Part shown: piece by piece, positions 1 to 48,926 of the stretch
How positions within the stretch are numbered: position 1 is the stretch's first letter
Layout of the letters: each line of letters opens with the position of its first letter
From: an uncultured Pseudomonadales bacterium
GTDB taxonomy: Bacteria > Patescibacteriota > Microgenomatia > UBA1400 > PJMF01
Assembly: GCA_964633875.1 (NCBI GenBank)
Contig: CAZWKL010000001.1
Span: 53,530 to 117,529, forward strand
DNA length: 64,000 nt
Direction of reading: 5' to 3'
Notes under the pieces: generated by a model
What the model was told of the DNA's origin: nothing
The model's database searches: none
The model's input: only the letters and a program-made list of their open reading frames with translations
Made by a program: the position numbers and the translations under genes

Positions 1-1059
1 AATCATGATCCGGATATTTTTAAGACAGAGTTTTTTACGCCGATTATTCAGAAACTCGAAACGGTTAGTGGCGCTCAATATAATCATGATGAGGCTGTAA
101 ACCGCTCGTTTCGGGTGATCGCTGATCACCTGCGGGCAGCAGTAATGCTGGCTGACGATGGTGTTTATCCGGACAACAAAGAGCAAGGCTATTTCTCAAG
201 AAGGCTGGTACGCCGGGCCATTAGGTATGCCAAAATGATTGGTATTACTAAGCCGTTTATTGGTGAACTGGTGGGGATAGTGGCAGAAATTTACCGCGAG
301 CCTTATCCTTCGGTTGTTGCCAATCAAGAAAAAATCAGCGCAATTCTCATTCAGGAAGAATTGAAATTTGAGCGGACTTTAGAAAAAGGTCTGCGGGAAC
401 TGGAAAAAATTGCCAAGCTGGATGGCGAAACGGCTTTTCATCTGTATGAAACTTATGGCTTCCCTTTTGAATTAACTCAAGAAATTGCTGCCGAAAAAGG
501 CCAGCACCTGGAACAAGCTGATTTTGACAAGGCCAAAGCAACGCACGCGGCGGTTTCCAGAACGGCTGCTGCTGGCAAGTTTCGAGGAGGTTTAGCCGAT
601 CAAAGTGAGCAAACCACGCAATTTCATACCGCCACTCATCTTTTGCACGCCGCGCTCAGGCAGGTTTTGGGTCAACATGTGGAGCAAAGAGGCAGCAATA
701 TTACTGAAAAAAGGTTACGTTTTGATTTCACTCACTCGGCGAGCTTGACGGCTGAGGAAAAATCTAAAGTGGAGCAGATGATCAATGATTGGATTAAGGA
801 CGGCTTGCCGGTGGTGCAACAAACTATGAGTAAAGAGGCAGCTTTGAATTCCGGCGCGCTGGCCTTTTTCAGAGAAAAATATGCTGACGAAGTTTCTGTT
901 TTTACCATCGGCAAAGACCGGGACAAGGACTGGATTTCCCGGGAGCTTTGCGGCGGTCCCCATGTGAGTAATACTAATGAGATCACACCGGTGGAAATAT
1001 TTAAAGAGAAATCGGCCGGAGCCGGTATTCGGCGCCTTTACTTGCGCGTCCGCCAATAA
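1..1059 (+). CDS. alaS: Alanine--tRNA ligase, C-terminal part. The gene starts upstream of the window; frame 1 is open from nt 1.
   Basis: The translation from nt 1 is continuous (NHDPDIFKTEFFTP...). The segment RVIADHLRAAVMLADDGVYPDNKEQGYFSRRLVRRAIRY is typical of the AlaRS tRNA-recognition domain. The editing domain is present: HTATHLLHAALRQVLG (HxxxH) and CGGPHV (CGGTH-like). Conserved alaS-ruvX-mltG synteny downstream. Confidence 0.85.
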   Translation, partial: NHDPDIFKTEFFTPIIQKLETVSGAQYNHDEAVNRSFRVIADHLRAAVMLADDGVYPDNKEQGYFSRRLVRRAIRYAKMIGITKPFIGELVGIVAEIYREPYPSVVANQEKISAILIQEELKFERTLEKGLRELEKIAKLDGETAFHLYETYGFPFELTQEIAAEKGQHLEQADFDKAKATHAAVSRTAAAGKFRGGLADQSEQTTQFHTATHLLHAALRQVLGQHVEQRGSNITEKRLRFDFTHSASLTAEEKSKVEQMINDWIKDGLPVVQQTMSKEAALNSGALAFFREKYADEVSVFTIGKDRDKDWISRELCGGPHVSNTNEITPVEIFKEKSAGAGIRRLYLRVRQ

Positions 1060-1120
1060 GATTCTCCAGGCTAACTTAGGCGTTGTACTCAAGAGGCGTT
1101 CTGTATACAATAGAAATGCT

Positions 1121-3448
1121 ATGGACTTGCCCAACCTTTTTTCTGCCTCAAAAACCAGTGAAGTTCCTGAGAAAGTTATTGGTATTTTACTTTCGCAAAC
1201 CAAGGTGCAGGCGCTGCTGCTGAGAATCAGTGAGACTCAGTTGTTGCTGGAAGCCTCTTCAGAGATTATTGAATATACTGACGTGAAAAATTGCGCCATT
1301 CAAACCGATGAAGCCTTGCAACAGCTGGGGCCGGAATCTGAAGCGGTGGATACCGTTGTTTTTGGTTTGGAACACGATTGGGTAGTAAACGGAGAAGTAG
1401 TTGAGCAGCGCCAGCCTCTCTTGAGTAAAATTACGGAAGATTTAGCTCTTAAGCCAGTTGGTTTTATTGATACTTCTGAAGCGCTGATTCAGCACAATCT
1501 GGCTCAAAATAGCCTGTATTCGGGCATTTTCTTGTTGTTGTCGCATACGGCTATGACGGTGAGCTATGTTTCGCAGGGGAATATTAGGGGGGTTGAACAG
1601 GTAGGCCGGTCTGAAAGTATCATTGCTGATTTGAGAGAGGGTTTGGCTAGATTTTCTAAGCAAGTTGAGGACGAGCAGTTTTATTTGCCTGCCAAATTGG
1701 TTTTAGCCTCGTTTGATTTGACTGAAGTTGAGTTAAGTGAAATCCAGCAAAGTTTGTTGGAATTTAACTGGACTGAGCACGCCAGATTTTTACAAATGCC
1801 TACCATTCAGGTGATTACGGATGAGGAGTTTACCTCTGTTGCGGCCATTGAAGCAGCGCGGGCGGCGGCTATCGCTGCCGGTTATTATTCAGCGGCGGCG
1901 GCGGCGGTAAATGGCTCAGTGCTGGCGGCCGAAGCAGCCGCTACCTCCAAAGAAATGGGCTTTTCCGAAATCGCCGCCGCCCCAACTGCCGCCCCCCCCG
2001 AATCAACCTCACCGCTGCCCGTAGAAACAGCAATTGCCGGTTCAGAAGAACCAGACCTATCTCAGTCTGCTGATCTGGAAACGGCGATAGCGCCAGTGGC
2101 AACCTCGTTTGGCGTCCCTATCTCTTCGGACAAAATCAGCGCCGGTGGCAAAACTCTCGAACAATTAGATCAAGAAGCAGAAGCCAAAAACCCCAGTAAA
2201 GTCGCCGACGACACCACTCAGGCAGGTTTCTTTGCCAATCTTAGAGCCAGATGGAACGAACCATACAAGGGCAAGCGCAGTTTGAAATTTTTTATCCTCA
2301 TCGGTTTTACTAGTGGATTATTGGTTATTGCTCTGGTTCTCGCGGCTATAATTTCCTTTTCTGCTCAAGCTGTGGTTGAACTAGAATATAATCTTTTGCC
2401 GGTGATCAAAAATGCCACCATCACTATTGATCCCGATGCCAACACTCCAGACTCAGAAAGACTCATTCTTCCAGGCAAAGCGGTCACTAGGGCTGTTTCC
2501 GGTCAAGAAACAGCCGCTTCTACCGGTACTGCTATTGTTGGCGATAAAGCCAAAGGCACCATTACCATCTACAACAAAACCGCTGCCAGGAAAGTTTTTA
2601 ACAAAGGAACAGTTTTTTCTTCAGGAGAACTGGACTTTACCTTAGATGAAGAAGTGTCAGTAGCTTCTGCCAGTGTTAAGGAGAAACAAGGCGGTAATGA
2701 GACTGAATATGGCAAAGCTGATGCTTCAGTTACCGCTGTTGAGATTGGTGATCAATACAACCTTGATGAAAAAACCGAACTTGCCGTCGATAATTTTGCC
2801 ACAGATACCTACTCTGCCGTGATAGCCAAAGGCGGTTTTATCGGCGGCGCCAGCCGAGAGGTTCAAGTTGTTTCTGCCAATGACTTGGCAAATTTGCAGG
2901 AAGGTTTACGCGCCAAATTACTTGCCCAAGCCAATGAAGAATTTAAAGCAGAATACCACAATGGCGTCCATGTTTTTCCGACAACCAAAATTGTAGATGA
3001 GCAAGCCGAATTTGATGCAGAAGAAACCGACGAAGTAACCAGTTTCTCGCTAACGCTCACCATTACCGCAGAAGCTCTTACTTACAATACCGATGACGCC
3101 CGAATTTTAGCAGCTCAAGTCTTGGCTTCGGAAATACCCGATAACTACGAACTTTCAAACCAAGAACCTCGAGTGATGAGTGATGAAGTTGAAAACAAGG
3201 ATGAGGGCAACAGCTCAATTATCCAACTCAATGCCCAATTTGAAGCCTATGCCCATCCCATTATTGACGAAGCAGCAGTCAAAGAAACCTTGGCAGGCAA
3301 GAAATTAGCTGAAGCTAAAGCCTCCTTTACGCACAATGATGAAGTCAAAAGCGTGGAATTTTACTGGCGGCCCACTTTTGCCTCCATGCTCCGCCAATCT
3401 TTACCCAGTCAGGAAAAAATCACCATCACCGTTAAGACTAAAGAGTAA
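1121..3448 (+). CDS. Membrane protein with a degenerate actin-like (FtsA/PilM-like ASKHA) cytoplasmic domain, an Ala/Pro-rich linker, one TM helix and a large beta-rich extracytoplasmic domain. Function unknown.
   Basis: The ORF track starts at 977 inside alaS; the first ATG after the alaS stop is at 1121 (MDLPNLF...). N-terminal 'KVIGILLSQTKVQALLL' and '...IFLLLSHTAMTVSYVSQGNI' resemble the phosphate-1/phosphate-2 segments of FtsA/PilM, but the DIG motif is lost. The TM helix is FFILIGFTSGLLVIALVLAAIISF (~aa 430). The C-terminal ~380 aa are rich in T/K/V/D beta-strand-like repeats. The stop overlaps the sortase start (TAAAAATG). Confidence 0.4.
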   Translation: MDLPNLFSASKTSEVPEKVIGILLSQTKVQALLLRISETQLLLEASSEIIEYTDVKNCAIQTDEALQQLGPESEAVDTVVFGLEHDWVVNGEVVEQRQPLLSKITEDLALKPVGFIDTSEALIQHNLAQNSLYSGIFLLLSHTAMTVSYVSQGNIRGVEQVGRSESIIADLREGLARFSKQVEDEQFYLPAKLVLASFDLTEVELSEIQQSLLEFNWTEHARFLQMPTIQVITDEEFTSVAAIEAARAAAIAAGYYSAAAAAVNGSVLAAEAAATSKEMGFSEIAAAPTAAPPESTSPLPVETAIAGSEEPDLSQSADLETAIAPVATSFGVPISSDKISAGGKTLEQLDQEAEAKNPSKVADDTTQAGFFANLRARWNEPYKGKRSLKFFILIGFTSGLLVIALVLAAIISFSAQAVVELEYNLLPVIKNATITIDPDANTPDSERLILPGKAVTRAVSGQETAASTGTAIVGDKAKGTITIYNKTAARKVFNKGTVFSSGELDFTLDEEVSVASASVKEKQGGNETEYGKADASVTAVEIGDQYNLDEKTELAVDNFATDTYSAVIAKGGFIGGASREVQVVSANDLANLQEGLRAKLLAQANEEFKAEYHNGVHVFPTTKIVDEQAEFDAEETDEVTSFSLTLTITAEALTYNTDDARILAAQVLASEIPDNYELSNQEPRVMSDEVENKDEGNSSIIQLNAQFEAYAHPIIDEAAVKETLAGKKLAEAKASFTHNDEVKSVEFYWRPTFASMLRQSLPSQEKITITVKTKE

Positions 3449-3450
3449 AA

Positions 3451-4410
3451 ATGATTTTACAGGACAGCCGAATTCCATTAGAAATGCAGGGTCAGCTCAT
3501 TGATCTTTATCGTCGTGCCCTGGAACAAGGTATGCCAATTGACGAGTTGGAGGAAAAAATTGCCAGATATCTTAAGCGTTTCAAGGTCACGGAAGTATAT
3601 GAATCTCTCGAGGTAAAAAACAGGGAAGAAAGACTTAAAAGACAAGTCCCCAAAGCTATAAAATACGGGGCGATTATCTTGCCATTGTTGTTCTTAAGCG
3701 TTGGTCTTTATCTGGTTGGATCGGCAGTGGTACCAATTCTAACTTATTACGTCAAGTCTGATTTGAGCTCATCGGAAACTCTATCGCTCAGGTCGCCAAT
3801 ACCGCGGGAAGAAGTCATTAACTCGGTTCCGACGCTCATCTCTCCCGTGGTTACTCAGGTAGTTGAAGCCAGTGAAATTGCCGCGCCCACCATCATCAAC
3901 GAACAGCTTGATTTTACCAATCTTAATAATTGGTTTAATGTCGATGCTTTGCCTGAATTAGCCGGTCAAAATGCAGAGGAAGAATATTACACACTCGATA
4001 TACCTTCGCTGGAAATCCAGAATGCTCAAGTAGCTATAGGTGGCACTGATTTGAATAAGAGCTTAATTCAGTATCCGGGCACGGCTGATCCTGGCCAGGT
4101 TGGTTCTCCGGTGATTTTTGGTCATTCCGTTTTGCGTCAATTCTACAACCCGAGCGAAAAAAATCCACAGCGCTACAACTCAATTTTCAGCTACATTATG
4201 ACCATGAAGCCGGGGGATAAAATTTACCTTACTCATGGTGAAACTAAATATACCTACGTAGTCAGGGAAAAATTGGAAATCAAGCCTGAGGATGTTCACG
4301 TTCTTAATCAGGATTTTGGTAGCAAAACTCTCAAGCTCATTACTTGTGTCCCGGAAGGCACCTACCTACGGCGGGGTGTAGTAGTGGCAGAATTAGTAGA
4401 ACAAGGCTAG
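3451..4410 (+). CDS. Sortase-family transpeptidase (membrane-anchored)
   Basis: Catalytic TLxTC motif (KLITCVPEGTYLRRGVVVAEL, with the conserved Arg downstream) and IFGHS histidine motif. N-terminal cytoplasmic region plus TM helix (AIILPLLFLSVGLYLVGSAVVPIL). Translationally coupled to the upstream gene. Confidence 0.75.
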   Translation: MILQDSRIPLEMQGQLIDLYRRALEQGMPIDELEEKIARYLKRFKVTEVYESLEVKNREERLKRQVPKAIKYGAIILPLLFLSVGLYLVGSAVVPILTYYVKSDLSSSETLSLRSPIPREEVINSVPTLISPVVTQVVEASEIAAPTIINEQLDFTNLNNWFNVDALPELAGQNAEEEYYTLDIPSLEIQNAQVAIGGTDLNKSLIQYPGTADPGQVGSPVIFGHSVLRQFYNPSEKNPQRYNSIFSYIMTMKPGDKIYLTHGETKYTYVVREKLEIKPEDVHVLNQDFGSKTLKLITCVPEGTYLRRGVVVAELVEQG

Positions 4411-4428
4411 CTGCGGTACAATATTTCT

Positions 4429-4818
4429 ATGTCTGTGTATCTTGCTGTTGATTACGGCACCAAAAGAGTGGGTTTGGCAATTGCCCGTGCGGGTTTAGCA
4501 GAACCATTAGTGATTCTCGATAATTCACCCGAATTGCTCAACCAAATTCAGCAAATTATTGAGGCAGAACAACCCCAGCAGCTGATTGTTGGTCTTTCGG
4601 AGCAAAAAATGGCTGAATTAACAAAAGCATTTGCCCGCGAGCTGGCCGCCAAGACAAAGCTTCCAATCATTTTTGCTGACGAAACTTTGAGTTCTCAGAC
4701 GGTCAGAGAAAAAATTAAAACCAGCAAGAAAAAAGTTCGCACTGGTCATATTGATCATTTCTCAGCAGCCTATTTTCTTCAAGAGTGGCTTGATACTCAC
4801 CAGTCAACTGCTCGCTGA
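4429..4818 (+). CDS. ruvX: Putative pre-16S rRNA nuclease / Holliday-junction resolvase-like YqgF
   Basis: N-terminus MSVYLAVDYGTKRVGLAIA matches the RuvX/YqgF RNase H-fold signature (LGxDxGxKRIGxA). Size 129 aa. Conserved position between alaS and mltG. Confidence 0.8.
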   Translation: MSVYLAVDYGTKRVGLAIARAGLAEPLVILDNSPELLNQIQQIIEAEQPQQLIVGLSEQKMAELTKAFARELAAKTKLPIIFADETLSSQTVREKIKTSKKKVRTGHIDHFSAAYFLQEWLDTHQSTAR

Positions 4819-4844: not shown

Positions 4845-5099
4845 TTGCGTTATAATAGAATCAAGGTGAAACGCCCGATCATTGCCAGCATCTTGATATG
4901 CTTCATCTTTGCAGCAATTGTCTTTTATGCGGGCTCTCACATCAATTTCCGAGGTGAGCGAAAACCAAGTTCTTATTCAACTGAACTGGCAATTTCTCCT
5001 TCACCATCTTTCGAGGAAAATATTGAGGGGAATATTGCGGAAGCTACAGCGTCAACTCAGTCTTCTTGCGAAAATTTAGCTACTGGCAAAGACTTTTGA
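4845..5099 (+). CDS. Small hypothetical membrane protein (84 aa)
   Basis: Single hydrophobic helix (IIASILICFIFAAIVFYAG). No recognisable family. Real-gene status is uncertain. Confidence 0.25.
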   Translation: MRYNRIKVKRPIIASILICFIFAAIVFYAGSHINFRGERKPSSYSTELAISPSPSFEENIEGNIAEATASTQSSCENLATGKDF

Positions 5100-5121: not shown

Positions 5122-6111
5122 ATGAGAAAACCGGGGTTAATACCAAAAATTATTTTAGGTTTGGCGGCGTTAATAATTTTGTCAGGGCTTGGTTTGGGAG
5201 TTTACGCCTACCAGCAACTTCAACCGGTAGATCCGAACAATCAAAATGAAGTCAGGTTTGTCATTGCTCCTGGGTCGGGGGTACAAAAAATTGCCAACGA
5301 CTTAAAAAGTTCAGAATTAATCAATCACCCTTTCATTTTTCGGGCCTACGTTACCCTCACTGGCTTAGATAAAAAACTTCAGGCAGGCTCGTTCGAACTT
5401 TCTTCAAGCTTAACTACAGCTGAAATTGCCACCACCCTAACACAAGGTACTCAAGACACCTGGATCAGATTACTTGAAGGCTGGAGAAGGGAAGAAATGG
5501 CTGAGTATTTAGAGCAGCAGGAACTGAACGAATTCTCCAAAGCAGAATTTCTAACCTTGACTGCTACTGCCGAAGGCAAGCTTTACCCTGATACTTATTT
5601 GGTGCCGAAGGACATCACTACTTCTGCATTGGTGAACTTGCTCCTGCGCACTTTTGAACAAAAAGTAGTTGTTGGTTTGGCTGATGAGTTAACCGCATCG
5701 GGCAGAACCTTGCATGAAATCTTGGTTATGGCCTCTCTAATTGAAAGAGAAGCCAGGAGTTTTGAGCAGATGAGACATGTTTCCGGAATTTTGTGGAACA
5801 GAATTGGTATTGGCATGCCTCTCCAGGTGGACGCAACGTTACAATACGCGGTTGGTTATGATGGGGCCAGGCGTTCTTGGTGGCCCCCTCCCTTGGCGGC
5901 TCACAAATCGGCCGCTTCCCCTTACAACACCTACGCCAATCCCGGTCTTCCGCCTGGCCCAATCGCCAATCCAGGCCTGAACGCTTTCAAAGCAGCACTT
6001 GACCCACTTCGGGTTAATGATTTATTCTATTTGCACGCATCCGATGGAAGGATGTATTATGCAGAGACATTAGAAGCACACAACGCGAATGTGAATACAT
6101 ACTTGCGCTAG
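5122..6111 (+). CDS. mltG: Endolytic murein transglycosylase MltG/YceG
   Basis: N-terminal TM anchor, YceG-like core (LQVDATLQYA...) and C-terminal PYNTYANPGLPPGPIANPG...YFYL motif typical of the MltG/YceG family. Conserved alaS-ruvX-mltG neighbourhood. Confidence 0.75.
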   Translation: MRKPGLIPKIILGLAALIILSGLGLGVYAYQQLQPVDPNNQNEVRFVIAPGSGVQKIANDLKSSELINHPFIFRAYVTLTGLDKKLQAGSFELSSSLTTAEIATTLTQGTQDTWIRLLEGWRREEMAEYLEQQELNEFSKAEFLTLTATAEGKLYPDTYLVPKDITTSALVNLLLRTFEQKVVVGLADELTASGRTLHEILVMASLIEREARSFEQMRHVSGILWNRIGIGMPLQVDATLQYAVGYDGARRSWWPPPLAAHKSAASPYNTYANPGLPPGPIANPGLNAFKAALDPLRVNDLFYLHASDGRMYYAETLEAHNANVNTYLR

Positions 6112-35387: not shown

Positions 35388-36215
35388 TTAACTACTAGCA
35401 CTACTATACCTTTTTAGGCTCCAATTCCAAAGCCAAAGGCTAAAAGTAAAAAAGCCAATTCCAAAAAAGCTGGCCATGACACCAGTGTAGGTGGGTGGCT
35501 GGTTGATGAGAATTTGACTGGGAATGGTGATCATCATGCCTACTGGTACCAAGAAAAACAATGCCAAGCGAATTGGTTCCAGGTAAATGGTGACGGGAAA
35601 CCGAGCCATGTCCATCAGGTCGCGATAAAGCCAGGTGGCGCCATCGATTTCGGTGGTGAGGATGCCGATGGCTAGGATGATGATGTGTAGCGCTGCAGCA
35701 ATGAGGAAAGCATTGGCGAGCAGAAGCAAGTACCAGGCTAGTGAAGCAACGGTGATGGTTAGCTCAAGCTGCAGCGCAATCCAAATACTAATCACCGTAG
35801 TAGGAATGACAAAAACAGCATCATTGAAATCGGGGTGGCCAGTGAGGGTTTGAAAAAGCGTATTAACTGGCTTGGCCAGGAGAAAATCCAACTCACCGCG
35901 CCTAACTTGTTGAGAAAACATGTACACTCCTCGGAAAAACACCTGAGACATCAAATCAATGAACTGATAGGTTAGGAAAAAGACAATCATTTCGTCAGTG
36001 GTGTAACCGGCAAAAGTATCAATAGTTTCTCTGATCAAAAACAAAACCAAAAGCGACATGGCAAACCTGATCACTTTGCCGGTGAAAAATAACGAATTTG
36101 TCCAACGATTGACAAAAGTTTGTTGCAGCACGTTGCTGGCCAGAATTCTCCAGACTTTAAAGTGGGTTTTCAGTCGTTTTAAGTTCATTATATTCCTATT
36201 GTCCGGCAGCATCAT
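35388..36215 (-). CDS. ABC-2-family transporter permease paralog F (6 TM)
   Basis: ~265-aa polytopic membrane protein sharing with five neighbours a conserved G-E/K-L-D-F-[YL]-L-x-[KR]-P loop (GELDFLLAKPVN) and a C-terminal ...YSSASS motif. Resembles COG4587/COG3694 'ABC-type uncharacterized transport system' permeases. Confidence 0.6.
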   Translation of the reverse strand: MMLPDNRNIMNLKRLKTHFKVWRILASNVLQQTFVNRWTNSLFFTGKVIRFAMSLLVLFLIRETIDTFAGYTTDEMIVFFLTYQFIDLMSQVFFRGVYMFSQQVRRGELDFLLAKPVNTLFQTLTGHPDFNDAVFVIPTTVISIWIALQLELTITVASLAWYLLLLANAFLIAAALHIIILAIGILTTEIDGATWLYRDLMDMARFPVTIYLEPIRLALFFLVPVGMMITIPSQILINQPPTYTGVMASFFGIGFFTFSLWLWNWSLKRYSSASS

Positions 36216-36987
36216 AACTTTTCAAGCCCCGGCCCCAAATATATTTCACCAGCCAGCCAAAAAATACAATCCAAGCCAAGAGCGTGAGCGTGTGTGTGAG
36301 CAATTCCTGGGGATTGAGTTTATCAAGAAACAACTGAGTCTGCATAAAGGCAAAATAAGGGAACGGAGTCATAAAAATAATCTTTTGCAGTAGTTCTGGC
36401 AAAATATTGAGAGGGAAGAGTTTGCCGGCAGTGATGTTAATGATCATGAAAAAGAGAAACCTTGGACCCCAAGTGTCCGGACTCCAAAAACCAAAAGCGC
36501 CAAAAAGCAAAGTAATCAGAAAATTCAAAATAATGCCACCCATCATCCAAACCAGAAATAGCAAAAAATTGTTTAAGCCAGGCAAAAAGATGACCGGCTG
36601 AAAAATCAAAAATAGTAGGGAAGTTTCAATGACCAAAAACCCGACATTTTTTAATTTATCGGCAATTTCTTGAGTGGCAAAATAGCCATAAACATTCATT
36701 GGTTTAATTAAAAACTGACTTAACTCACCGGAATAAACAATATTGGCTAAATTATTGAGAGCGGTAGCAATAATCGCGCTTTGCAAAAAAGCGGCCAGAA
36801 AAATATAGGTGATCATTTCTTGCTGATTGTAGGCAAAAGCGCTCTCAGTGGCGCCAAAAATGACCGTCCAGAGGGTCAGCGCCATGATGGTGGAGAGAAA
36901 CTGGCGAAAGCGCCACATCAAGATACTGGCCCGGTAGACCAGACCGTTTTCCCAAGCCACTTTGGTTAAAACCCAATATTTTCGCAT
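36196..36987 (-). CDS. ABC-2-family transporter permease paralog E
   Basis: Same architecture. Loop GELSQFLIKPMN; C-terminus ...KSYDAAGQ. 20-nt overlap with paralog F. Confidence 0.6.
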   Translation of the reverse strand: MRKYWVLTKVAWENGLVYRASILMWRFRQFLSTIMALTLWTVIFGATESAFAYNQQEMITYIFLAAFLQSAIIATALNNLANIVYSGELSQFLIKPMNVYGYFATQEIADKLKNVGFLVIETSLLFLIFQPVIFLPGLNNFLLFLVWMMGGIILNFLITLLFGAFGFWSPDTWGPRFLFFMIINITAGKLFPLNILPELLQKIIFMTPFPYFAFMQTQLFLDKLNPQELLTHTLTLLAWIVFFGWLVKYIWGRGLKSYDAAGQ

Positions 36988-37004
36988 GATGATTACCGCG
37001 CAGC

Positions 37005-37080
37005 CCTTTTTTCACCCTTTTTCACAGATTTTCACGCTTTTTGACCCAGGCTTTCACGCTTTTTTCACAACTTTTCACGC
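37005..37080. repeat. Seven phased (T)nTCAC / GTGA(A)n heptamer repeats at 10-12-bp spacing, lying between the ATPase stop and the permease E start
   Basis: Plus strand: cccTTTTTTCACccTTTTTCACagaTTTTCACgcTTTTTGACccaggcTTTCACgcTTTTTTCACaacTTTTCACgc. TTCAC cores at 37011, 37021, 37031, (37041 TTGAC), 37053, 37064 and 37074. The last copy overlaps the ATPase stop codon (TGA at 37077..37075 on the minus strand). Confidence 0.6.
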
Positions 37081-38079
37081 CGCTTGAGTATCACTGAAGA
37101 CTTCACGGATAATGGCCTCAATTGGCGGCTCTTCAATATTCAAATCTTCTACCGGCAGCTTGTTGAGAATCTTGCCTGCCTGGGTAGTGGCTTGTTTGCG
37201 CGGCACCAGCAAAGTAGCCGTGTAAGCAGAACCGTCTTGGTGGTACTCTTTGATCTCACCAAATTTTTTGAGGTCTTTTTCTTTGACTTCCTGGCTAAAA
37301 ACCAGGGACAGAATTTTGTTGCGGGCGTACTTGTCAATAATATTTTGCAGCTTGCCGTCAAAAACTTTTTTGCCCTCATCAATAATAATGGCCCGCTCAC
37401 ACAGCTCCTTGACGTCGTCCATGTAGTGACTGGTGAGAATAATGGTAGCGCCGAACTCTTGGTTGTACTGCTTGATGAAATCGCGCAGAGTTTTCTGCAT
37501 CACTACGTCCAGGCCAATGGTCGGCTCATCCAGAAACAGCACTTTAGGATTGTGCAGCAGGGCGGCGATCAGTTCGCACTTCATTCTCTGGCCGAGTGAA
37601 AGCTTGCGCACCTGGACATTGAGAATTTTACGCACATCCAGCAAATCCACCAGTTTGTCGAGTGTTTTTTGGAACTCTTGATCAGGAATTTCGTAAATGG
37701 CTTTGTTGAGCAAGAAAGTTTCCATGGCCGGCAGGTCCCACCAGAGTTGATTTTTTTGGCCCATCACCAGCGCAAACTGCTTTTGAAACTCCGGTTTGCG
37801 ATCCCAAGGGTTGTAGCCGAGTACACTAACCGCGCCGCCGGAAGGATAGAGCAAGCCCGAGAGCACTTTCAGGGTAGTAGTTTTGCCGGCGCCGTTTTGG
37901 CCAATAAAGCCCACTACTTCACCTTCAAAAATTTCAAAACTAATGTCATCGACCGCCCTGACGGTTTCGTACTCGCGGTGCCAGAGCGACTTAATCGAAC
38001 CCCAAAGCCCCGGCTCTTTGTGATAAACCTTAAAGTGTTTTTTGAGATTTTTGACAGAAATGATTGTTTTTTTCGACAT
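37075..38079 (-). CDS. ABC transporter ATP-binding protein (COG4586-like) with a C-terminal extension
   Basis: Walker A GQNGAGKTT. Q-loop, signature LSLGQRMKCELIAAL, Walker B LFLDEPTIGLD and the H-loop are present. 334 aa (~90 aa beyond the NBD). It sits in the middle of six permease genes. Confidence 0.85.
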   Translation of the reverse strand: MSKKTIISVKNLKKHFKVYHKEPGLWGSIKSLWHREYETVRAVDDISFEIFEGEVVGFIGQNGAGKTTTLKVLSGLLYPSGGAVSVLGYNPWDRKPEFQKQFALVMGQKNQLWWDLPAMETFLLNKAIYEIPDQEFQKTLDKLVDLLDVRKILNVQVRKLSLGQRMKCELIAALLHNPKVLFLDEPTIGLDVVMQKTLRDFIKQYNQEFGATIILTSHYMDDVKELCERAIIIDEGKKVFDGKLQNIIDKYARNKILSLVFSQEVKEKDLKKFGEIKEYHQDGSAYTATLLVPRKQATTQAGKILNKLPVEDLNIEEPPIEAIIREVFSDTQAA

Positions 38080-38106
38080 AGATATTGTTGTATTGTAACG
38101 TAATTT

Positions 38107-38907
38107 TTACGAGCTTGCTGAGGAATATTGCTTCAAACTGTGTTGCCACACGATTTTGCTGAGAGTGACGCTACCCACCGCTGCCACTGCCGACAAGAGC
38201 AGTAGCCACCAACTACCCCTGCCCAGCAAAAACAAAGTGGGAATATAGCCGAAAAAGGCCATTGGAATCAAGGTAACCGCCACCAGCTGAAAACTGAAGG
38301 GAAACAACGGCTGGGGATATTGGCCAAAATCGCTGATTTTCATGAAAACTTCAAAAACTTGCGAAGCTCTGGTGAGGTAGAAAGCCATGGAAGAATACAA
38401 AGACACAATGCCGTAGCAAACCACGATCCCCAGTACAAACGCCACCAAAAACATTAACAGGCCAGCCGGCGTAATCACCGCTTTTAAAGTAAACATTTGG
38501 TAAAAAAGCAGCAGCGCCAAGCTTATCATCAACACAAATTGCTCCACTTCCGGCTTGGAGTAAAACGACATAAATTGAGAATCAACCGGTTTGGTCAGGT
38601 AAAAATCCAACTTTCCTTGCCGAATATCGAAATAAACAAACTCCCGTGCGCCTTTCATAAAAAGTACAAAACAGCAGGTAAAAATTAGGTGAAAAACCAG
38701 AAAGAGCAAATAGCCCTCTGCTTCCGACCAGCCAGCCACCACAGGAGTAATGGTGTAAGCAATCTTGACCATAAAAAACATCACCACAACGTAGGCGGGA
38801 GCGTAAAGCGACTGCACCACAAAGTTGACCTTGTAAGCCATGATGGCGTTGAGGTGATAAATGAAAAATTTTCGGTAAAGATTGAGGTACTTGAGCGCTT
38901 TTTTCAT
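38107..38907 (-). CDS. ABC-2-family transporter permease paralog D
   Basis: Loop GKLDFYLTKPVD; C-terminus ...LKQYSSASS. 6 predicted TM helices. Confidence 0.6.
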   Translation of the reverse strand: MKKALKYLNLYRKFFIYHLNAIMAYKVNFVVQSLYAPAYVVVMFFMVKIAYTITPVVAGWSEAEGYLLFLVFHLIFTCCFVLFMKGAREFVYFDIRQGKLDFYLTKPVDSQFMSFYSKPEVEQFVLMISLALLLFYQMFTLKAVITPAGLLMFLVAFVLGIVVCYGIVSLYSSMAFYLTRASQVFEVFMKISDFGQYPQPLFPFSFQLVAVTLIPMAFFGYIPTLFLLGRGSWWLLLLSAVAAVGSVTLSKIVWQHSLKQYSSASS

Positions 38908-39702
38908 TTAAATACCCGTGCTTTCATAACTTTTAGAGCCGGCGCGCCAAAGTAAGTCGCGCAAGTAAGTGACGACAACGATCCAGCCGCAAAGAATCCC
39001 CAACCCCGCCAGAGCGGTAGTTTTTGGCAGTTCGTGATTCATCATCTGAATGGGCGTGTAAGCCAGGTGTTGAAAAGGCAGAAAGAAAGAGATCTGCTGA
39101 AACAACTGAGGAAAAAAGCTAATCGGTACCAAAACACCTGACAAAAATCTAATAACGATCAGCAGCGACCAGCGGATAGCAAAAACATCGTTAAACCAGA
39201 AACACAAGCCGGAAATCAAGCTGTACAAACTGAAAGTGAAAATAAAAATTATCGGCATGAAGAGCAAGAGCAAGGCAAAATCACCCAAGCCGGCGTTGAG
39301 TGAGTAGCCCAACAGATACAAAATTGGCAAGATCACCAGGAACTTAAATAAAGTTTCTAAAATTATCGTCCCGCTTTCAAAAGAGAAGTAATGCCAGACG
39401 GGCGAAATGGGTTTGAGCAAAAACTTGGACAAGTAGCCCAGCTTGATATCTTCATCAATGTACCAAGTGTGTAGGTTGGACAAACTGTACAGAATGGCCG
39501 CCAGGAAAAAATAGCGCACGGTTTGGTCTGAGGCCATGATTTGATTGTCACCGCTTTTTTGCACGCCAATCCAAACCAGCGACATCAAAATTACCATGGT
39601 GGCGTACTTGAGTGTCCGCAGCACAAAGTCGAAGCGATACTGCATCGTGTCTTGAATGCTGATTTTGGTGACCAAAAGATACTTTTTCATTTTTTGCGCC
39701 AA
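38908..39702 (-). CDS. ABC-2-family transporter permease paralog C
   Basis: Loop GYLSKFLLKPIS; C-terminus ...SKSYESTGI. Directly abuts paralog D with a 0-nt gap. Confidence 0.6.
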   Translation of the reverse strand: MAQKMKKYLLVTKISIQDTMQYRFDFVLRTLKYATMVILMSLVWIGVQKSGDNQIMASDQTVRYFFLAAILYSLSNLHTWYIDEDIKLGYLSKFLLKPISPVWHYFSFESGTIILETLFKFLVILPILYLLGYSLNAGLGDFALLLLFMPIIFIFTFSLYSLISGLCFWFNDVFAIRWSLLIVIRFLSGVLVPISFFPQLFQQISFFLPFQHLAYTPIQMMNHELPKTTALAGLGILCGWIVVVTYLRDLLWRAGSKSYESTGI

Positions 39703-39723
39703 TCAAGGTACCAAGCAAGGCCT

Positions 39724-40527
39724 TTAATTCCCCACGCTGGTGTATTTTTTGATTGAAATTTTGTAAAACCAACCTGCGAAAATTATAAACCCTAAAGTAA
39801 AAATCAAGAAATACAATATGAGGGCGTAATTTTCTCTGCCCAGCAAAGCCTCGCTCGGCAAACTAGTCACTAAAGCCAAGGGGAAAAGAGTGGTAAAAAC
39901 AAACGAGGCCACGCCAGTGTAAATTGAGCGGGGAAACTGATAAATATCCCTCAGAGAAGGCATAATACTAGTGACGTTATCCAGTCTCTCAAACCAAAAG
40001 GCGATCGTGGCCGTTACAAACCAGCCGGTGTAAAGGAAAATTAAGCTGATCAACACTAAAGCAATGAAAAGGGCGATGTGTACGATAGAAAGCTCGATCT
40101 GCAGGTTTTTAAGCGCCCAAATGAGCACAAATATGCCAATAAGGAGCCTGGGAACGTTGTCATAGCTGTTGCGGTGAACCAATAAGAGGTAAGTGGTGTT
40201 GATTGGCCGGATGAGTAGGTCGGAGAGTTGGCCGGAATAAATCATCCGCCGGAAACGCATCATGTTGGGCGCGAACCAACCCCAAGTGAAAGCATCCAGG
40301 ATAGTGTAGGTGGCCACCACCAAGTAAAGTTCCATCTCGCTCCAGCCGGCGATGTTGTCATTGACACCAATCAACAGCCTGAAGAAAAAGAAATTAAAAG
40401 CTGTCCACATCACCGAGACAAAGCTCCAGAAGAAAAAATCAGTCCGGTAGGTCATCATTTGCATTAGCATCAGCTTGCGAAAGTGCCAAAAAAGTTGCCA
40501 GTATTTTTTCAGTCCCTTGTTTGTCAT
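39724..40527 (-). CDS. ABC-2-family transporter permease paralog B
   Basis: Loop GQLSDLLIRPIN; C-terminus ...KKYTSVGN. Directly abuts paralog A. Confidence 0.6.
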   Translation of the reverse strand: MTNKGLKKYWQLFWHFRKLMLMQMMTYRTDFFFWSFVSVMWTAFNFFFFRLLIGVNDNIAGWSEMELYLVVATYTILDAFTWGWFAPNMMRFRRMIYSGQLSDLLIRPINTTYLLLVHRNSYDNVPRLLIGIFVLIWALKNLQIELSIVHIALFIALVLISLIFLYTGWFVTATIAFWFERLDNVTSIMPSLRDIYQFPRSIYTGVASFVFTTLFPLALVTSLPSEALLGRENYALILYFLIFTLGFIIFAGWFYKISIKKYTSVGN

Positions 40528-41325
40528 TTAGCCTCCCACAGAAGAATACTGTAGCCTGGCTTTTTTCCAGACGAAAGCGGTCAAGGCAAGCATACCTAAA
40601 ATTACTCCGGTCATATAAAGATAATCAAATGGAACTAAACTGTACTGTCCCTGCAAGAGCATAACAGGGACGACAAACAAGTACTTGAAGGGCAGCAGCT
40701 CGACGATGTTACGCATCAGTTCAGGCAGAAAAATCACTGGCATAATGCTGCCGCTGAATAGCGCCACTGTTACCCACTTAAAGTGCTCCAATCCGTTGGA
40801 GCCTTCCAGCCAGAAAGTTAGCAGCACAATCCAGAGGCCAAAAATAAATTGGATCAGGTGGGCGGCGAAAAGGACCAGCAAAAATTGCGGCGCGTTGGCA
40901 AAAAAGTCCGGTAGGCTGAAGCCGGGAATGAAGAAGTTGATAATGAAAACTAGCAGGCCCAGGACGGGCAAAAAGAGCAAGAAAGCAAAAAACTTGCTGG
41001 CCACGCTGGAAGTATAGATTTCCAACAGGTAAGAGAAAGGTCGAATCAGGTAGAAATCGATTTTGCCGTCGCGGATTTGTTCAGCCCGCCAGCCTTCAAA
41101 GTGAACAACAGTCAAGCGGTCAATCACCGCCACCATCACGTAATACTGCATCACCTGGATCAGCGAGTAGTCTTGAATGGTGGCCGCGCCACGGTAGATA
41201 GCCTGCCAGATAAAAATCATGGTGATGTAGGGGACCAAGTCCATCAACAGCCACAAAAAAGTTTCCGCCCTGAACTGCAGAGAGGTCATCAGACTGAGCC
41301 GGAAAAAAGCCAGGTATTTTTTCAT
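40528..41325 (-). CDS. ABC-2-family transporter permease paralog A, the first gene of the operon
   Basis: Loop GKIDFYLIRPFS; C-terminus ...RLQYSSVGG. 6 TM helices. Confidence 0.6.
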   Translation of the reverse strand: MKKYLAFFRLSLMTSLQFRAETFLWLLMDLVPYITMIFIWQAIYRGAATIQDYSLIQVMQYYVMVAVIDRLTVVHFEGWRAEQIRDGKIDFYLIRPFSYLLEIYTSSVASKFFAFLLFLPVLGLLVFIINFFIPGFSLPDFFANAPQFLLVLFAAHLIQFIFGLWIVLLTFWLEGSNGLEHFKWVTVALFSGSIMPVIFLPELMRNIVELLPFKYLFVVPVMLLQGQYSLVPFDYLYMTGVILGMLALTAFVWKKARLQYSSVGG

Positions 41326-41829: not shown

Positions 41830-42225
41830 TTATATATAATTGTGCCGTTTTAAGAAAGCGATAAATGCTCCCAGCAAATCGTAGCCGAGATCGCGAAAAG
41901 TGCCGTATCTGCCTGGTACGAAGGACTGGTGAAACTCATCCGACAAGGCGTAAAGGAAGGTAATGAAAAAAGCGATTTGCCAGATTTGGAAAGGGCCGTG
42001 TTTTTTCTGGGGGATGGTTTGTTGAATACCCCAATGCAGGAGCAGAAAAAGGACAGCATAAACAAAAATATGGGCTAGTTTTTTGAAGGCATAATCGCTC
42101 CAGGAAACAGCCAGTCCGGGCAGATTGGTTTGGGAGGAAAGCAGGAAGATGAAAATGGCCCAGAGTACGGAAGGTCCGAAGGCTTTAGCCCACAGCGCTA
42201 ATGATTTGAACAATTCTTTTTTCAT
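41830..42225 (-). CDS. VanZ-like family membrane protein
   Basis: Motif ALSDEFHQSFVPGRYGTFRDLGYD matches the VanZ signature (DExxQxFxPGR...D). 3-4 TM helices. The ORF track extends to 42264; the ATG at 42225 (MKKELFK) was chosen. Overlaps the 3' end of the upstream gene. Confidence 0.6.
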   Translation of the reverse strand: MKKELFKSLALWAKAFGPSVLWAIFIFLLSSQTNLPGLAVSWSDYAFKKLAHIFVYAVLFLLLHWGIQQTIPQKKHGPFQIWQIAFFITFLYALSDEFHQSFVPGRYGTFRDLGYDLLGAFIAFLKRHNYI

Positions 42226-43354
42226 ACAGTAACAAAACTCCGCTGGAGCTAATTGCGAACCCACCTAGTATAACATTTAGCAAGCTTTTCTGTGAGGGTG
42301 GTTGAGCCGGCGTCTTGGCGTAGATGGCCTTGCCGGTAGCTTGGGTTGGAGCATTGTTTTCAGAGGCGTTCTCAGGGGTGGCGGTGAAGTCAGGCAGTGG
42401 CTGGTTGGGGCTGGGGGTGGAAGTTTGGTGGGTGGTGGAGTTGGTGGGGGCGGTGGGGTTGGTGGAATTGGCGGTGGAACCTGGCTGGTTTTCGGTGGTG
42501 GAGCTGGTAGAGTTTTGGCCGCCAGGCGAGGTTTGCTGTGGGTAGATGGTTTCACCCTTGGTACAGCCAGAGTAACTGGCGGTGGCAACAGTCTCGCCGG
42601 TGGGGGTTTCGATAAAGACTGAATCGCCGGTGTTGTTGAGCATGGCCTGCTGCCAGGAGGTTTTCTGGGTTTGGCCTGGGGGGATGGCGCCTGAGAGGCC
42701 ACGGAAGTTGTTTTGTTCATCCCGGATTTTCCAGTTTTCCAGGTTGAGGGTGGTAGGGCCGTGATTTTTGATGATGATCCATTCCGGCTGGTTTTCCAAA
42801 GGGCAGGGGTGGATTTCTTCGATGGTGAGTTGAGGCGGAGCGGAACTGGGTGGCGGACTGGTGGATGGTGAAGGTGTGGGGGTGGTGGCAGCGGTGGGAG
42901 GAGGTGTGGGTGTGGGGAGCAGGTTGGGACTGCCGGGAGTGGGGTCGGTGAGGAGGAAGACATTTTCGTTGGTGGCGCGGCGGCTCCAGCTTTTGCCGGG
43001 GGTGGAAGTTTCGTACTGCATGGCGTCGATTTGTTCGCCACTGGCATTGTAAAGCACCACGCCGTCCGCGCCATTATTCAGCTTCATGGAAGATAGCTCA
43101 AAAACTGCGTAGCCACCGGCTTCCAGCGTCAGGTTGCCAATGGTGTAAATCAGAGCCGGCGAAGCCAGTTGGTCGTAGAGCGTCCAGCCAGTGAGATTCA
43201 CCGGCTCAATATCGGGATTGTGCAGCTCCACCCACTCCGGCCCGTCTTGGGGCTGGGGAAAAACTTCGGAGATGACGGGGGCAGCGGAGGCCGAGATGGG
43301 GAGAAGCAAGAAAAAGCACAATGCAATCGGAAAGATGAGCAACAAATGCGTCAT
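42185..43354 (-). CDS. Secreted protein with two lamin-tail domains (LTD), a Pro/Thr linker, an S/T/N-rich low-complexity region and a C-terminal hydrophobic anchor
   Basis: Signal peptide (LLIFPIALCFFLLLPISASA). LTD1 is ISEVFPQP..EWVELHNP..VNLTGWTLYD...NNGADGVVLYNASGEQIDAMQY. LTD2 is IEEIHPCP..EWIIIKNHG..LNLENWKIRD...NNTGDSVFIETPTGETV. The linker is PTPTPPPTAATTPTPSPSTSPPPSS. C-terminus ...LLNVILGGFAISSSGVLLLYEKRIV. Confidence 0.6.
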   Translation of the reverse strand: MTHLLLIFPIALCFFLLLPISASAAPVISEVFPQPQDGPEWVELHNPDIEPVNLTGWTLYDQLASPALIYTIGNLTLEAGGYAVFELSSMKLNNGADGVVLYNASGEQIDAMQYETSTPGKSWSRRATNENVFLLTDPTPGSPNLLPTPTPPPTAATTPTPSPSTSPPPSSAPPQLTIEEIHPCPLENQPEWIIIKNHGPTTLNLENWKIRDEQNNFRGLSGAIPPGQTQKTSWQQAMLNNTGDSVFIETPTGETVATASYSGCTKGETIYPQQTSPGGQNSTSSTTENQPGSTANSTNPTAPTNSTTHQTSTPSPNQPLPDFTATPENASENNAPTQATGKAIYAKTPAQPPSQKSLLNVILGGFAISSSGVLLLYEKRIVQIISAVG

Positions 43355-43407
43355 GGCTCTTTGATAGCACCAATTTCTGGCTTTAAGTGTAGAGGGACCG
43401 GAGTTCT

Positions 43408-48600: not shown

Positions 48601-48926
48601 AGATAAACAAACCCAAGTCTGAGAAAATGGTCTGGTAAGACAAATGATCCGAGCCATAGAGTAATAATTCTGGGTAAGTCACTCATATGCGAGTGAGCAG
48701 CTACTGCACCCAAACCCTGATCTTGTCTCCAAACTCCAAAAATAACATTAGAAATTTGTGAGGGGAAATTAAATTCCGGATGCAATGTATCCCAGCCAGT
48801 CAGCCATTTTCCCGGAACGTAGTTTGTGATAATAATCAGTAAAGTAATCAGGAAAATTGATGCTGGCCAAAAAAAATTATTAAACCACTTTTTAGTGGGG
48901 ATATGGGCAGCAATATTTTTCATCAT
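45612..48926 (-). CDS. Large polytopic membrane glycosyltransferase-like protein (GT-C fold; YfhO/AftD/PMT-like architecture). ~13 N-terminal TM helices, a ~550-aa extracytoplasmic domain and a C-terminal TM helix.
   Basis: 1104 aa. N-terminal 500 aa are strongly hydrophobic with short loops. The C-terminal soluble region ends with the TM helix FAGFLILTTTAILLINIAF. Immediately downstream of, and overlapping (4 nt), a GT2 polyprenyl-phosphate sugar synthase-like gene. This is the classic donor-synthase/GT-C pairing. Confidence 0.5.
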   Translation of the reverse strand: MMKNIAAHIPTKKWFNNFFWPASIFLITLLIIITNYVPGKWLTGWDTLHPEFNFPSQISNVIFGVWRQDQGLGAVAAHSHMSDLPRIITLWLGSFVLPDHFLRLGFVYLCFIMGPLGIYYFIKNGIFEEKSGYIIHASAFLGALVYIFNLGTVQHFYVVFEMFAVQYSVLGWLFLFTIKSLYSENPKYLLAFFVISLFSTPMAYASQLWFAYFGALILFLIVLNLEERKRNFFKKSLFVIGATLAANSFWLLPNLYFLLTDAAKIPANSHINRLFSPESFLHNANFGKIQDVAIFRNFLFNWLDLKNDGRFGDLLPQWKEHIGNIWIISIGYAIFAFSLIGLTVSVLKKKKVETALLPIILLSIFMLMNMNPPFNYIFGWLRDNVAIFREGLRTPFTKFSLLLMFSTSVYFSVFMNEVMKFIRKIIKVSLAINISLVFLVSFVLGLYGLPLLQGQLINKKLLNDIPQPYFSLYDWLETQPDQARIINLPLQTPIGWEFYDWGYEGAGFIWFGMNQPMTVRDFDRWNPHNETLYKELSAALYGNDPQTFIETLEKFDISYLLLDESIINPNDNTDTVKKPEIKNLLAEIGLKPAWQENFLSIYDVRLLVGSKSFVYVPDSLVLAIGDVTYSKRDPIYQGNGPYVSGNHNLFIDKQPIMYPFADYLKDQTPFVEYGHNQLIIKENIAELTDNAKLILPPLAQGEEHMAQISLNFTNGLVTVDFNQQIIIKTGSDQFALPSLPSVALPIPLEFQNVIIEIGEKQIEIQQGQTIQTEANLQINRPVVISAFNFAEIEEEEDQRFIDSNRVASISLSTESWDSMTQEHTVDLKPSSELVIQISSIPYSPEFANPNSVSNCDLMRKNESIKKIVADNVVYQSVDLGVACDGADLFDLNQHSSYLMRWQIENISGRTIKLNLQNIAAGRSDLEELIPDSSREISYGILPWPYLENEGYYLSWENRSFGSEISENIIENIEIYPVPLDFISRIVIKPQSESEKIINHAKISNLWKVGTYQYGFKVDNPDIGLVALSQTYENGWIAINLSNLHLLDHVIYNGWANAWVLPEGSYHVIVFFWPQLLEFAGFLILTTTAILLINIAFNPKFSYHE

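Follow-up and report, generated by a model that had tools for sequence, protein, structure and literature searches.

Two adjoining genes lie between alaS and ruvX in a stretch of 64,000 nucleotides (nt) from contig CAZWKL010000001.1 of GenBank assembly GCA_964633875.1 (positions 53,530 to 117,529; hereafter the window), which GTDB assigns to the Microgenomatia of the Patescibacteriota. The first, gene 1, encodes a 775-residue membrane protein, and the second, gene 2, a membrane-anchored sortase. Comparison with related loci shows that the pairing of the two genes is strict and ancient, and points to an obligately linked envelope module of Microgenomatia-type Patescibacteria.

Read along the forward strand, the window gives the order alaS (3' part), gene 1, gene 2, ruvX, an 84-residue open reading frame (ORF) with a transmembrane (TM) helix, mltG, rpoB and rpoC. 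At 3443-3453 the junction between gene 1 and gene 2 reads GAG TAA AA ATG, and the two genes are joined by TAAAAATG. The longest ORF version of gene 1 begins at 977, inside alaS; we place the true start at 1121, because all homologues begin at the MDLPNLFS encoded there. The coordinates, the junction and the flanking Pfam families agree with an earlier note on this DNA, which had described two coupled genes between alaS and ruvX-mltG from the letters alone. The note took the adjacency of alaS, ruvX and mltG to hold in most bacteria; as far as known, it is typical of Gram-positive lineages instead.

A genome scan yielded 77 loci, almost all from metagenome-assembled genomes (MAGs) of Patescibacteria or 'Pacebacteria', and linkage was counted in 75 loci whose sequence runs on for 900 nt or more past gene 1 (71 with gene 1 in the fused form and four, from Saccharibacteria, in a split form). 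The sortase gene is immediately next in 71 of the 71 fused loci, with gaps mostly of -8 to +26 nt. By tblastn, the order alaS, gene 1, sortase, ruvX, mltG, rpoB recurs in nearly every locus that is long enough, and alaS, the sortase, ruvX, mltG, rpoB and rpoC are neighbours in around 70 loci. The pair is kept in homologues at 19-25% identity (L078, L079 and L081), and in L079 it has moved away from alaS and is followed by a gene for a class A penicillin-binding protein (PBP). Other recurring neighbours are FtsK and a protein with an HTH_25 domain, a domain known from RodZ. Linkage in relatives had been named beforehand as the refuting test, and with all 71 loci linked the refutation fails decisively. 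The description of the pair as an insertion into a conserved neighbourhood has to be given up, as the arrangement is ancient, lineage-wide and found in every related genome examined. We also rejected an origin from a prophage or other insertion: the GC content and skew of the region fall within what is usual for the window, phage genes are absent, and synteny extends across the lineage.

The family is large. A gene 1 profile search over 1.84 billion representatives returned 12,019 representative clusters at E ≤ 1e-3, of which 4,009 also pass E ≤ 1e-30; among the 150 matches listed, lengths range from 691 to 825 residues and most matches cover the whole profile. Where a source names these homologues, it calls them 'hypothetical protein'.

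Anatomy and kinship of gene 1

The AlphaFold2 (AF2) model of full-length gene 1, built with 23 homologues as input, has a mean predicted local distance difference test score (pLDDT) of 78 and consists of four parts: a folded N-terminal domain (N-domain), a disordered segment, one long helix and a beta-rich folded C-terminal domain. Neither the whole protein nor the N-domain alone gave a Pfam or NCBIfam match. Within the disordered segment lies a short motif, [TS]SFG[IV]PI, in which Gly331 is kept in 70, Phe330 in 63 and Ser329 in 62 of 71 homologues. From the positive-inside rule, we infer that the N-terminus lies in the cytoplasm and the C-terminus outside. A cytoplasmic N-terminus, a single TM helix and then a large outside domain had been proposed before, and the AF2 anatomy agrees; it was not, as also proposed, the A/P-rich linker that crosses the membrane, since the linker (residues 263-387) is cytoplasmic and a separate hydrophobic helix (residues 388-414) makes the crossing. 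The C-terminus is a folded beta-strand, with no C-terminal hydrophobic segment or basic tail.

The N-domain is a two-lobed, RNase-H-like fold of the ASKHA (actin-like) type, modelled at a pLDDT of about 90 and giving 406 Foldseek matches in the PDB at E ≤ 1e-3. Structure prediction, the check that could have overturned the earlier proposal of an actin-like fold, came out in its favour. The matches spread over Ppx/GppA (2e-8), PilM (5.6e-7), BT_3980 (TMt 0.52), EutJ (0.50) and YeaZ, so that structure alone indicates a minimal ASKHA core and not FtsA or PilM specifically. In the hhalign register the FtsA motif DIGT falls on LLSQ, DVGGGTTD on LLSHTAMT and GGGA roughly on SFD of the window protein, and across the 71 homologues no glycine is conserved in any of the three loops, phosphate-1 (DxG), phosphate-2 (DxGGGTT) and adenosine (GGG[AS]). 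The loss of the phosphate-binding DxG, noticed earlier in the window protein, is borne out and extends to all three nucleotide motifs. An Asp stands at residue 26, three residues downstream of the motif position, in 52 of the 71 homologues (Gln in the window protein), and some distant gene 1 homologues keep D-[IV]-G at phosphate-2, which is consistent with the stepwise decay of a once functional ATPase.

The gene 1 family profile aligns to an FtsA-like protein of Saccharibacteria with an hhalign probability of 87.6% (E 3.5e-6, 236 columns), versus 0.17% for E. coli FtsA as a control. The alignment omits about 100 residues (roughly 100-200) of the Saccharibacterial protein, which are its 1C (SHS2) subdomain, and the N-domain, at only about 250 residues, lacks this subdomain. 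The two families have in common a motif, LPxR..L…W…PF…P, in which Trp217 is kept in 67, Phe223 in 68 and Pro227 in all of the 71 gene 1 homologues, and by tblastn the Saccharibacterial protein directly matches the N-domain of a distant gene 1 homologue (L080, E 5e-5). The order of ASKHA core, flexible linker and membrane anchor is likewise that of the FtsA-like protein. Unlike FtsA, gene 1 gives no match to the FtsA models PF14450 and TIGR01174, either whole or as the N-domain, and the C-terminal amphipathic membrane-targeting helix of FtsA is missing; in its place is a true TM helix that runs into a 360-residue extracellular domain. Profile-level homology of this kind shows the N-domain to be a degenerate derivative of the candidate phyla radiation (CPR) FtsA-like protein that has kept the ASKHA core and lost the 1C subdomain and the ATP motifs. 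Canonical ftsA was not found in the window or the related loci examined.

The FtsA-like protein belongs to the split form of the system, seen in four Saccharibacterial loci (L075-L077 and L082) that were found through the ectodomain. There, a 420-425-residue FtsA-like gene lies 1-2 nt upstream of a gene for a 549-563-residue protein made up of a small cytoplasmic domain, a TM helix and an ectodomain as in gene 1 (hhalign 99.6%, E 5e-25, against the gene 1 family), and the two occupy the same genomic position, alaS…ruvX-mltG. In the FtsA-like protein the DIGT, DVGGGTTD and GGGA motifs are all intact, and the C-terminus forms an amphipathic helix, ending …IKEKLNRLLRI. It matches PF14450 at 1e-13; its best family match is TIGR01174 (ftsA; 1e-34), at 120 bits and below the cutoff of 176. 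It aligns end to end with E. coli FtsA at 24% identity (E 9e-14) and is 86-90% identical across more than 100 clusters. No sortase gene is adjacent in the four split loci. A separate FtsA-like gene directly upstream of a homologous ectodomain gene, at the same position, marks gene 1 as the fused, degenerate counterpart of the Saccharibacterial pair, as homology and synteny together show; whether a fusion or a fission took place is a matter of inference.

The Saccharibacterial ectodomain protein (L076 5500-5800; also L075, L077 and L082) has a small cytoplasmic N-domain of its own, alpha/beta-looking (MQKDVIYIDVDDDVTAIIGKIKK…VVAIVPPKRAGALQS…) and without a family match. It stands where the fused form has the ASKHA domain, and may be an FtsA-binding element.

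Modelled on its own, the gene 1 ectodomain reaches a pLDDT of 88, and Foldseek aligns 344-387 columns along its whole length to wedge proteins: the diffocin triplex (8v3w, 8e-6), phi812 (9euf_I), Mu gp47 (9ki1), cyanophage A-1(L) (8kea), Pa193 and phiCD508. A BFVD fold search gave 'Baseplate J-like' phage proteins as top matches. PF04865 matches weakly in 17 of 23 homologues (best 5e-8), and precomputed annotation lists it for P0019, P0020 and P0022, flagged as weak for P0019; the family profile gives weak matches in the barrel region to diffocin TRI-2 and Mu gp47 among PDB sequences, a search in which matches of the TM helix to synaptobrevin were set aside as chance. The window protein gave 0 Pfam families at E ≤ 1, so that the PF04865 gathering score was not reached. 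What gene 1 shares with the Baseplate J, Mu gp47 and diffocin wedge proteins is the succession of beta-barrel and alpha/beta domains across some 350 residues, along with the weak sequence signal from the barrel; TM-scores reach only about 0.2 and root-mean-square deviations are high, as expected when multi-domain chains hinge. Taken by itself, the beta-barrel is also similar to the barrel of GlxA and to domain II of EF-Tu. In contrast to the phage and diffocin proteins, gene 1 is cellular, membrane-anchored, encoded in a housekeeping operon and below every Pfam threshold, with no gp25-like or TssG-like partners or tail genes nearby. The models show both the fold and the domain order of the wedge proteins, and on these grounds we regard the ectodomain as a Baseplate-J homologue. 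An outside, beta-rich domain of about 380 residues had been foreseen; its placement and beta-rich character stand (residues 415-775), and what had been missed was the Baseplate-J homology.

The sortase and its candidate substrates

Gene 2 scores 76 bits with PF04203, where the cutoff is 26.6 (E 2.4e-21), and His225, Cys299 (in LITC) and Arg308 are invariant in the alignment. Judged by these residues the sortase is catalytically intact, as had been read from the window alone. More than 1,300 homologues are 50-58% identical over the full length. The 80-residue stretch between the TM helix and the catalytic domain carries two invariant motifs, APIP and D-[YF]-T-N-x-x-N-W-[FY], which are kept down to 27% identity and constitute a family signature. 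The cytoplasmic N-terminus is about 71 residues long rather than the 90 or so first estimated, and is missing in the 241-244-residue sortases of the distant pairs (L078, L079 and L081), which excludes it as a universal interface.

Class-specific models, which had been suggested as a means of classifying the enzyme, gave no assignment: every such NCBIfam model falls below its cutoff (class E 41.5/160, class C 38/160, class D 30/165, class F 17.5/166), and only the generic sortase model TIGR01076 passes (41.9 versus 39.35). Among PDB sequences the best matches, with E-values of about 1e-7, are to class A SrtA, and one source labels the homologue P0100 'class C sortase'. Gene 2 shares with class A/E housekeeping sortases the PF04203 domain, the His-Cys-Arg triad and type II membrane anchoring, but differs from them in its failure of the class-specific cutoffs, in the family-specific APIP and D-Y-T-N-x-x-N-W-F of the linker and in the 71-residue cytoplasmic extension of its close clade. 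A sortase has been reported in the Microgenomates genome Ch65 (PMC7143001).

No ORF in the 64-kb window combines an LPxTG-like motif with a hydrophobic segment and a basic tail. Among about 1.1 Mb of related loci that were screened, one orthologous pair only (L056 84-581 and L057 155-640) has a real sorting signal, with TLPESG, a TM helix and KSKN at the C-terminus, and its presence in the lineage makes an LPxSG/TG-type specificity plausible. Gene 1 has no sorting signal, and no LPxTG-like motif is conserved in its ectodomain; the earlier view that the protein lacks an LPxTG-type signal and is more plausibly a partner of the sortase than its substrate is upheld. The two ORFs put forward as substrates, at 54610-54972 and 42185-43354, each have a C-terminal TM helix and a basic tail, without an LPxTG-like motif. 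We also considered the 84-residue ORF downstream of ruvX (ORF84, 4845-5099), which ends in NLATGKDF, as an LAxTG substrate and rejected it: apart from a longer variant in L030 it occurs only in the window and L001, the L001 copy has LDTG as its motif, and the motif is not followed by a hydrophobic tail.

The ORF at 42185-43354 (- strand) encodes a secreted protein with two lamin-tail domains, a Pro/Thr/Ser-rich stalk and a C-terminal TM helix. Adjoining it at 43408-48926 (- strand) are genes for proteins of 734 and 1104 residues, the latter with a weak GT-C (AftD-like) match, and next to them a GT2 glycosyltransferase gene; the region 42185-48926 may be a surface glycan or glycoprotein locus. 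The ORF at 54610-54972 encodes a small Cys-rich secreted protein with a C-terminal anchor and lies beside a gene for a RhuM-family 'virulence protein' (55331-56362, + strand; PF13310, 4e-110); together they may form a mobile or accessory islet amid the housekeeping genes of the rest of the window.

Surroundings of the pair

The coordinates of the two genes, their parts and their neighbours are collected in Table 1.

Table 1. Features of the gene 1-sortase locus, in window coordinates.
Feature	Position	Strand	Evidence
alaS, 3' part; conserved upstream neighbour	115..1059	+	PF01411 5.7e-45, PF07973; upstream of gene 1 in nearly all related loci
Gene 1, 775-residue bitopic membrane protein: ASKHA pseudo-ATPase, linker, TM helix, Baseplate-J-like ectodomain	1121..3448	+	ORF, homologues, AF2
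Gene 1: cytoplasmic ASKHA (actin-like) domain, residues ~15-262	1163..1906	+	pLDDT ~90, Foldseek, hhalign, motif counts in 71 homologues
Gene 1: disordered A/P/E-rich cytoplasmic linker, residues 263-387	1907..2281	+	pLDDT <50 for 263-344 and 356-369; length and sequence variable in alignment
Gene 1: short linear motif [TS]SFG[IV]PI, residues 328-334, within linker	2102..2122	+	conserved in homologues
Gene 1: single TM helix, residues 388-414, predicted N-in/C-out	2282..2362	+	AF2 helix; basic KGKRSLK on N-terminal side
Gene 1: predicted extracellular Baseplate-J-like domain, residues 415-775	2363..3445	+	domain-only AF2 pLDDT 88, Foldseek, weak PF04865
Gene 2, membrane-anchored sortase, 319 residues	3451..4410	+	PF04203 2.4e-21; start 2 nt past gene 1 stop
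Gene 2: cytoplasmic N-terminal extension, residues 1-71, LYRxAL motif, clade-specific	3451..3663	+	kept in close homologues
Gene 2: sortase TM helix, residues ~72-101	3664..3753	+	hydrophobic, invariant Gly85 and Pro95, basic residues before
Gene 2: extracellular motif D-[YF]-T-N-x-x-N-W-[FY], residues 154-162, TM-to-catalytic linker	3910..3936	+	Asp154, Asn160, Trp161 invariant, including homologues at 27% identity
Gene 2: sortase catalytic domain, residues 182-316	3994..4398	+	His225 4123-4125, Cys299 4345-4347, Arg308 4372-4374
ruvX/yqgF, conserved downstream neighbour	4429..4818	+	PF03652 2e-25; synteny
ORF84, small TM ORF, 84 residues; lineage-specific filler outside conserved module	4845..5099	+	only in window and L001, longer variant in L030
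mltG/yceG, conserved neighbour, peptidoglycan strand terminase family	5122..6111	+	PF02618 6.8e-71, TIGR00247; synteny

A promoter and terminator scan of the region performed no better than on shuffled sequence. A TACAAT (-10-like) box lies only 7-11 nt before the ATG of gene 1 (tgTATACAATagaaatgctATG; window 1100-1120) and of ruvX (ggTACAATatttctATG; window 4412-4428), and there is no obvious Shine-Dalgarno sequence at either start; these genes may have very short leaders or leaderless transcripts.

The gap between ruvX and mltG is a variable insertion spot across genomes. Some carry nothing there (gap 14-200 nt); five (L007, L009, L017, L031 and L032) carry a conserved protein of 191-204 residues (a 191-residue ORF), by eye macro-domain-like; another five (L011, L016, L022, L027 and L035) carry membrane ORFs of 455-471 and 321-329 residues; and some carry a 515-residue P-loop protein. 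In the distant relative L080 (11599-15064) rpoB is apparently split into a 414-residue product (Rpb2_1/2) and a 733-residue product (Rpb2_3 to Rpb2_7).

Elsewhere in the window, the - strand carries at 35388-41325 a tandem array of six paralogous genes for membrane proteins of about 265 residues, and five of the six products have a K-x-Y-x-S/A-x-G-like tail. The paralogue at 40528-41325, the only one scanned, matches PF06182 (ABC-2 permease), and a gene for an ABC ATPase (37075-38079) lies in the middle of the array.

Many MAG records with a typical Patescibacteria locus are titled 'uncultured Pseudomonadales bacterium' (for example L001, L003 and L007), and other such loci (L060 and L011 among the examples) are titled as one Methylococcaceae and one 'candidate division TM6' complete genome. 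The record taxonomy of these assemblies is evidently unreliable.

Function of the pair and competing explanations

Taken together, these observations lead us to favour, tentatively and with somewhat less than even confidence, an ancient sortase-linked envelope module in which gene 1 is the scaffold that places the sortase. Gene 1 would be a nucleotide-independent scaffold spanning the envelope, linking a positional cue in the cytoplasm, which might come from a cytoskeleton of FtsA/FtsZ type, from self-assembly or from a partner of the motif in its linker, to a platform outside the cell, with the flexible linker and its [TS]SFG[IV]PI motif joining the head to a true TM helix at the place of the FtsA amphipathic anchor. 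The sortase, which shares the membrane and the topology of gene 1, would be recruited, stabilised or regulated by gene 1 at sites of wall synthesis or division, and LPxTG/LPxSG-type surface proteins would then be joined to newly made peptidoglycan at the places where MltG, PBPs and FtsK are active. This proposed function draws on genomic context, with mltG, a PBP, FtsK and the HTH_25 protein among the neighbours of the pair, and on analogy with SafA, a small TM protein with an FPW motif that blocks signal-peptidase cleavage and is linked to the actinobacterial housekeeping SrtA (PMC9282373). In both systems the gene of a housekeeping-type sortase is strictly linked to that of a non-substrate membrane protein; gene 1, however, is a 775-residue protein in three parts that shows no sequence relation to SafA.

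Several points weigh against the scaffold proposal. What speaks for an interaction between gene 1 and the sortase is the linkage of their genes, and a place beside alaS, ruvX and rpoB could reflect housekeeping co-expression and not joint function. The sortase extension is clade-specific, so no universal cytoplasmic interface between the two proteins is evident. The split form functions without a sortase neighbour, which gives the ectodomain protein a sortase-independent core role, probably tied to FtsA because the genes are coupled at 1-2 nt. The Baseplate-J likeness is one of fold, with the low TM-scores and high deviations given above, and these genomes may hold a canonical FtsA elsewhere.

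A bolder form of the proposal, which we think unlikely, has FtsA turned into the nucleotide-blind head of a TM protein with a domesticated Baseplate-J wedge outside; with the sortase it would make up a CPR-specific, envelope-spanning machine coupling the division cytoskeleton to wall and surface assembly, and replacing divisome parts that these minimal cells lack. Because Baseplate-J proteins assemble six-fold, such a machine would possibly form a ring.

We consider it just as unlikely that the two genes are neighbours only, with gene 1 a component of the divisome or elongasome, possibly the lineage's substitute for FtsA, anchored in the membrane, tethering FtsZ and acting together with MltG, and the sortase merely co-transcribed. 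The Saccharibacterial FtsA-like and ectodomain genes do hold the alaS…ruvX-mltG position without a sortase, the FtsA-like protein is extremely conserved (86-90% identity, more than 100 clusters), and in TM7x the annotated ftsA does not adjoin ftsZ (PMC10768705). This explanation has to contend with linkage in 71 of 71 loci at near-zero spacing and down to 19-25% identity, and with a linkage that outlasts relocation away from alaS, which is unusual for unrelated neighbours.

It is improbable that the pair forms a surface attachment device, in which the ectodomain, as a domesticated phage tail or wedge module, contacts or penetrates host cells and the sortase anchors accessory surface proteins to it. 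The Baseplate-J fold does extend along the whole ectodomain, and all cultivated CPR bacteria are described as episymbionts (PMC11623550); but no tail, sheath, spike, gp25-like, TssG-like or other baseplate genes occur in around 80 loci, the gene sits in a core housekeeping context of unremarkable GC content and skew for the window, and the core motifs of the ectodomain are invariant and not diversifying.

More doubtful still is a pilus platform, with gene 1 as a PilM-PilN-type inner-membrane alignment fusion or a platform for sortase-polymerised pili, and gene 2 as a pilus-specific sortase. PilM is among the significant Foldseek matches (5.6e-7), both systems couple a cytoplasmic ASKHA protein to a bitopic protein with an outside alpha/beta domain, and a class C label is attached to P0100 by one source. 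However, the matches to minimal ASKHA proteins are no weaker than that to PilM, no PilM_2/TIGR01175 match was obtained, and gene 1 is a fusion with a Baseplate-J ectodomain, where PilM binds PilN through a peptide and the outside domains have the PilN/PilO fold. Neither the neighbourhood of the pair in the window nor any related locus has a pil operon, and pilin, pilB/C/T and pilN/O genes are likewise absent nearby; the class C model scores 38 bits against a cutoff of 160, and class A SrtA heads the PDB sequence matches of the sortase. By hhalign and BLAST the kinship of the N-domain is with the Saccharibacterial FtsA-like protein, whose best match is TIGR01174, and not with PilM-PilN as the earlier note had suggested. 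The least probable explanation is that the sortase processes or cross-links gene 1 through a non-canonical internal signal: strict gene linkage is all that speaks for it, against an N-in/C-out protein that ends in a folded beta-strand with no hydrophobic segment or basic tail, has no conserved LPxTG-like motif in its ectodomain and belongs to a lineage with a canonical LPESG signal.

A search of the literature on baseplate proteins, sortases and FtsA in CPR bacteria found no description of the gene 1 family in the literature searched, and a preprint on a CPR 'Pam pilus' concerns a different locus. All three folds are known; Pfam, NCBIfam and the literature searched hold no record of their combination, of an FtsA turned pseudoenzyme by fusion, of a cellular Baseplate-J ectodomain or of the obligate pairing with a sortase. 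The pair is real, ancient and uncharacterised, it represents a very large CPR family, and it probably belongs to the poorly understood cell-wall or division machinery of the lineage.

The CPR, or Patescibacteria, may hold a large share of bacterial diversity, and the division and envelope building of these bacteria are almost unknown; in the Microgenomatia-type loci examined, few gene pairs are as strictly conserved as gene 1 and its sortase. The case documents how an ATPase of the actin family, once fused, decayed into a pseudo-enzyme; it also shows the phage Baseplate-J fold in cellular use and, after SafA, a second housekeeping sortase with a putative membrane partner of its own. The split form sits in Saccharibacteria, which are now cultivable and genetically tractable, and offers a testable entry point to this system.

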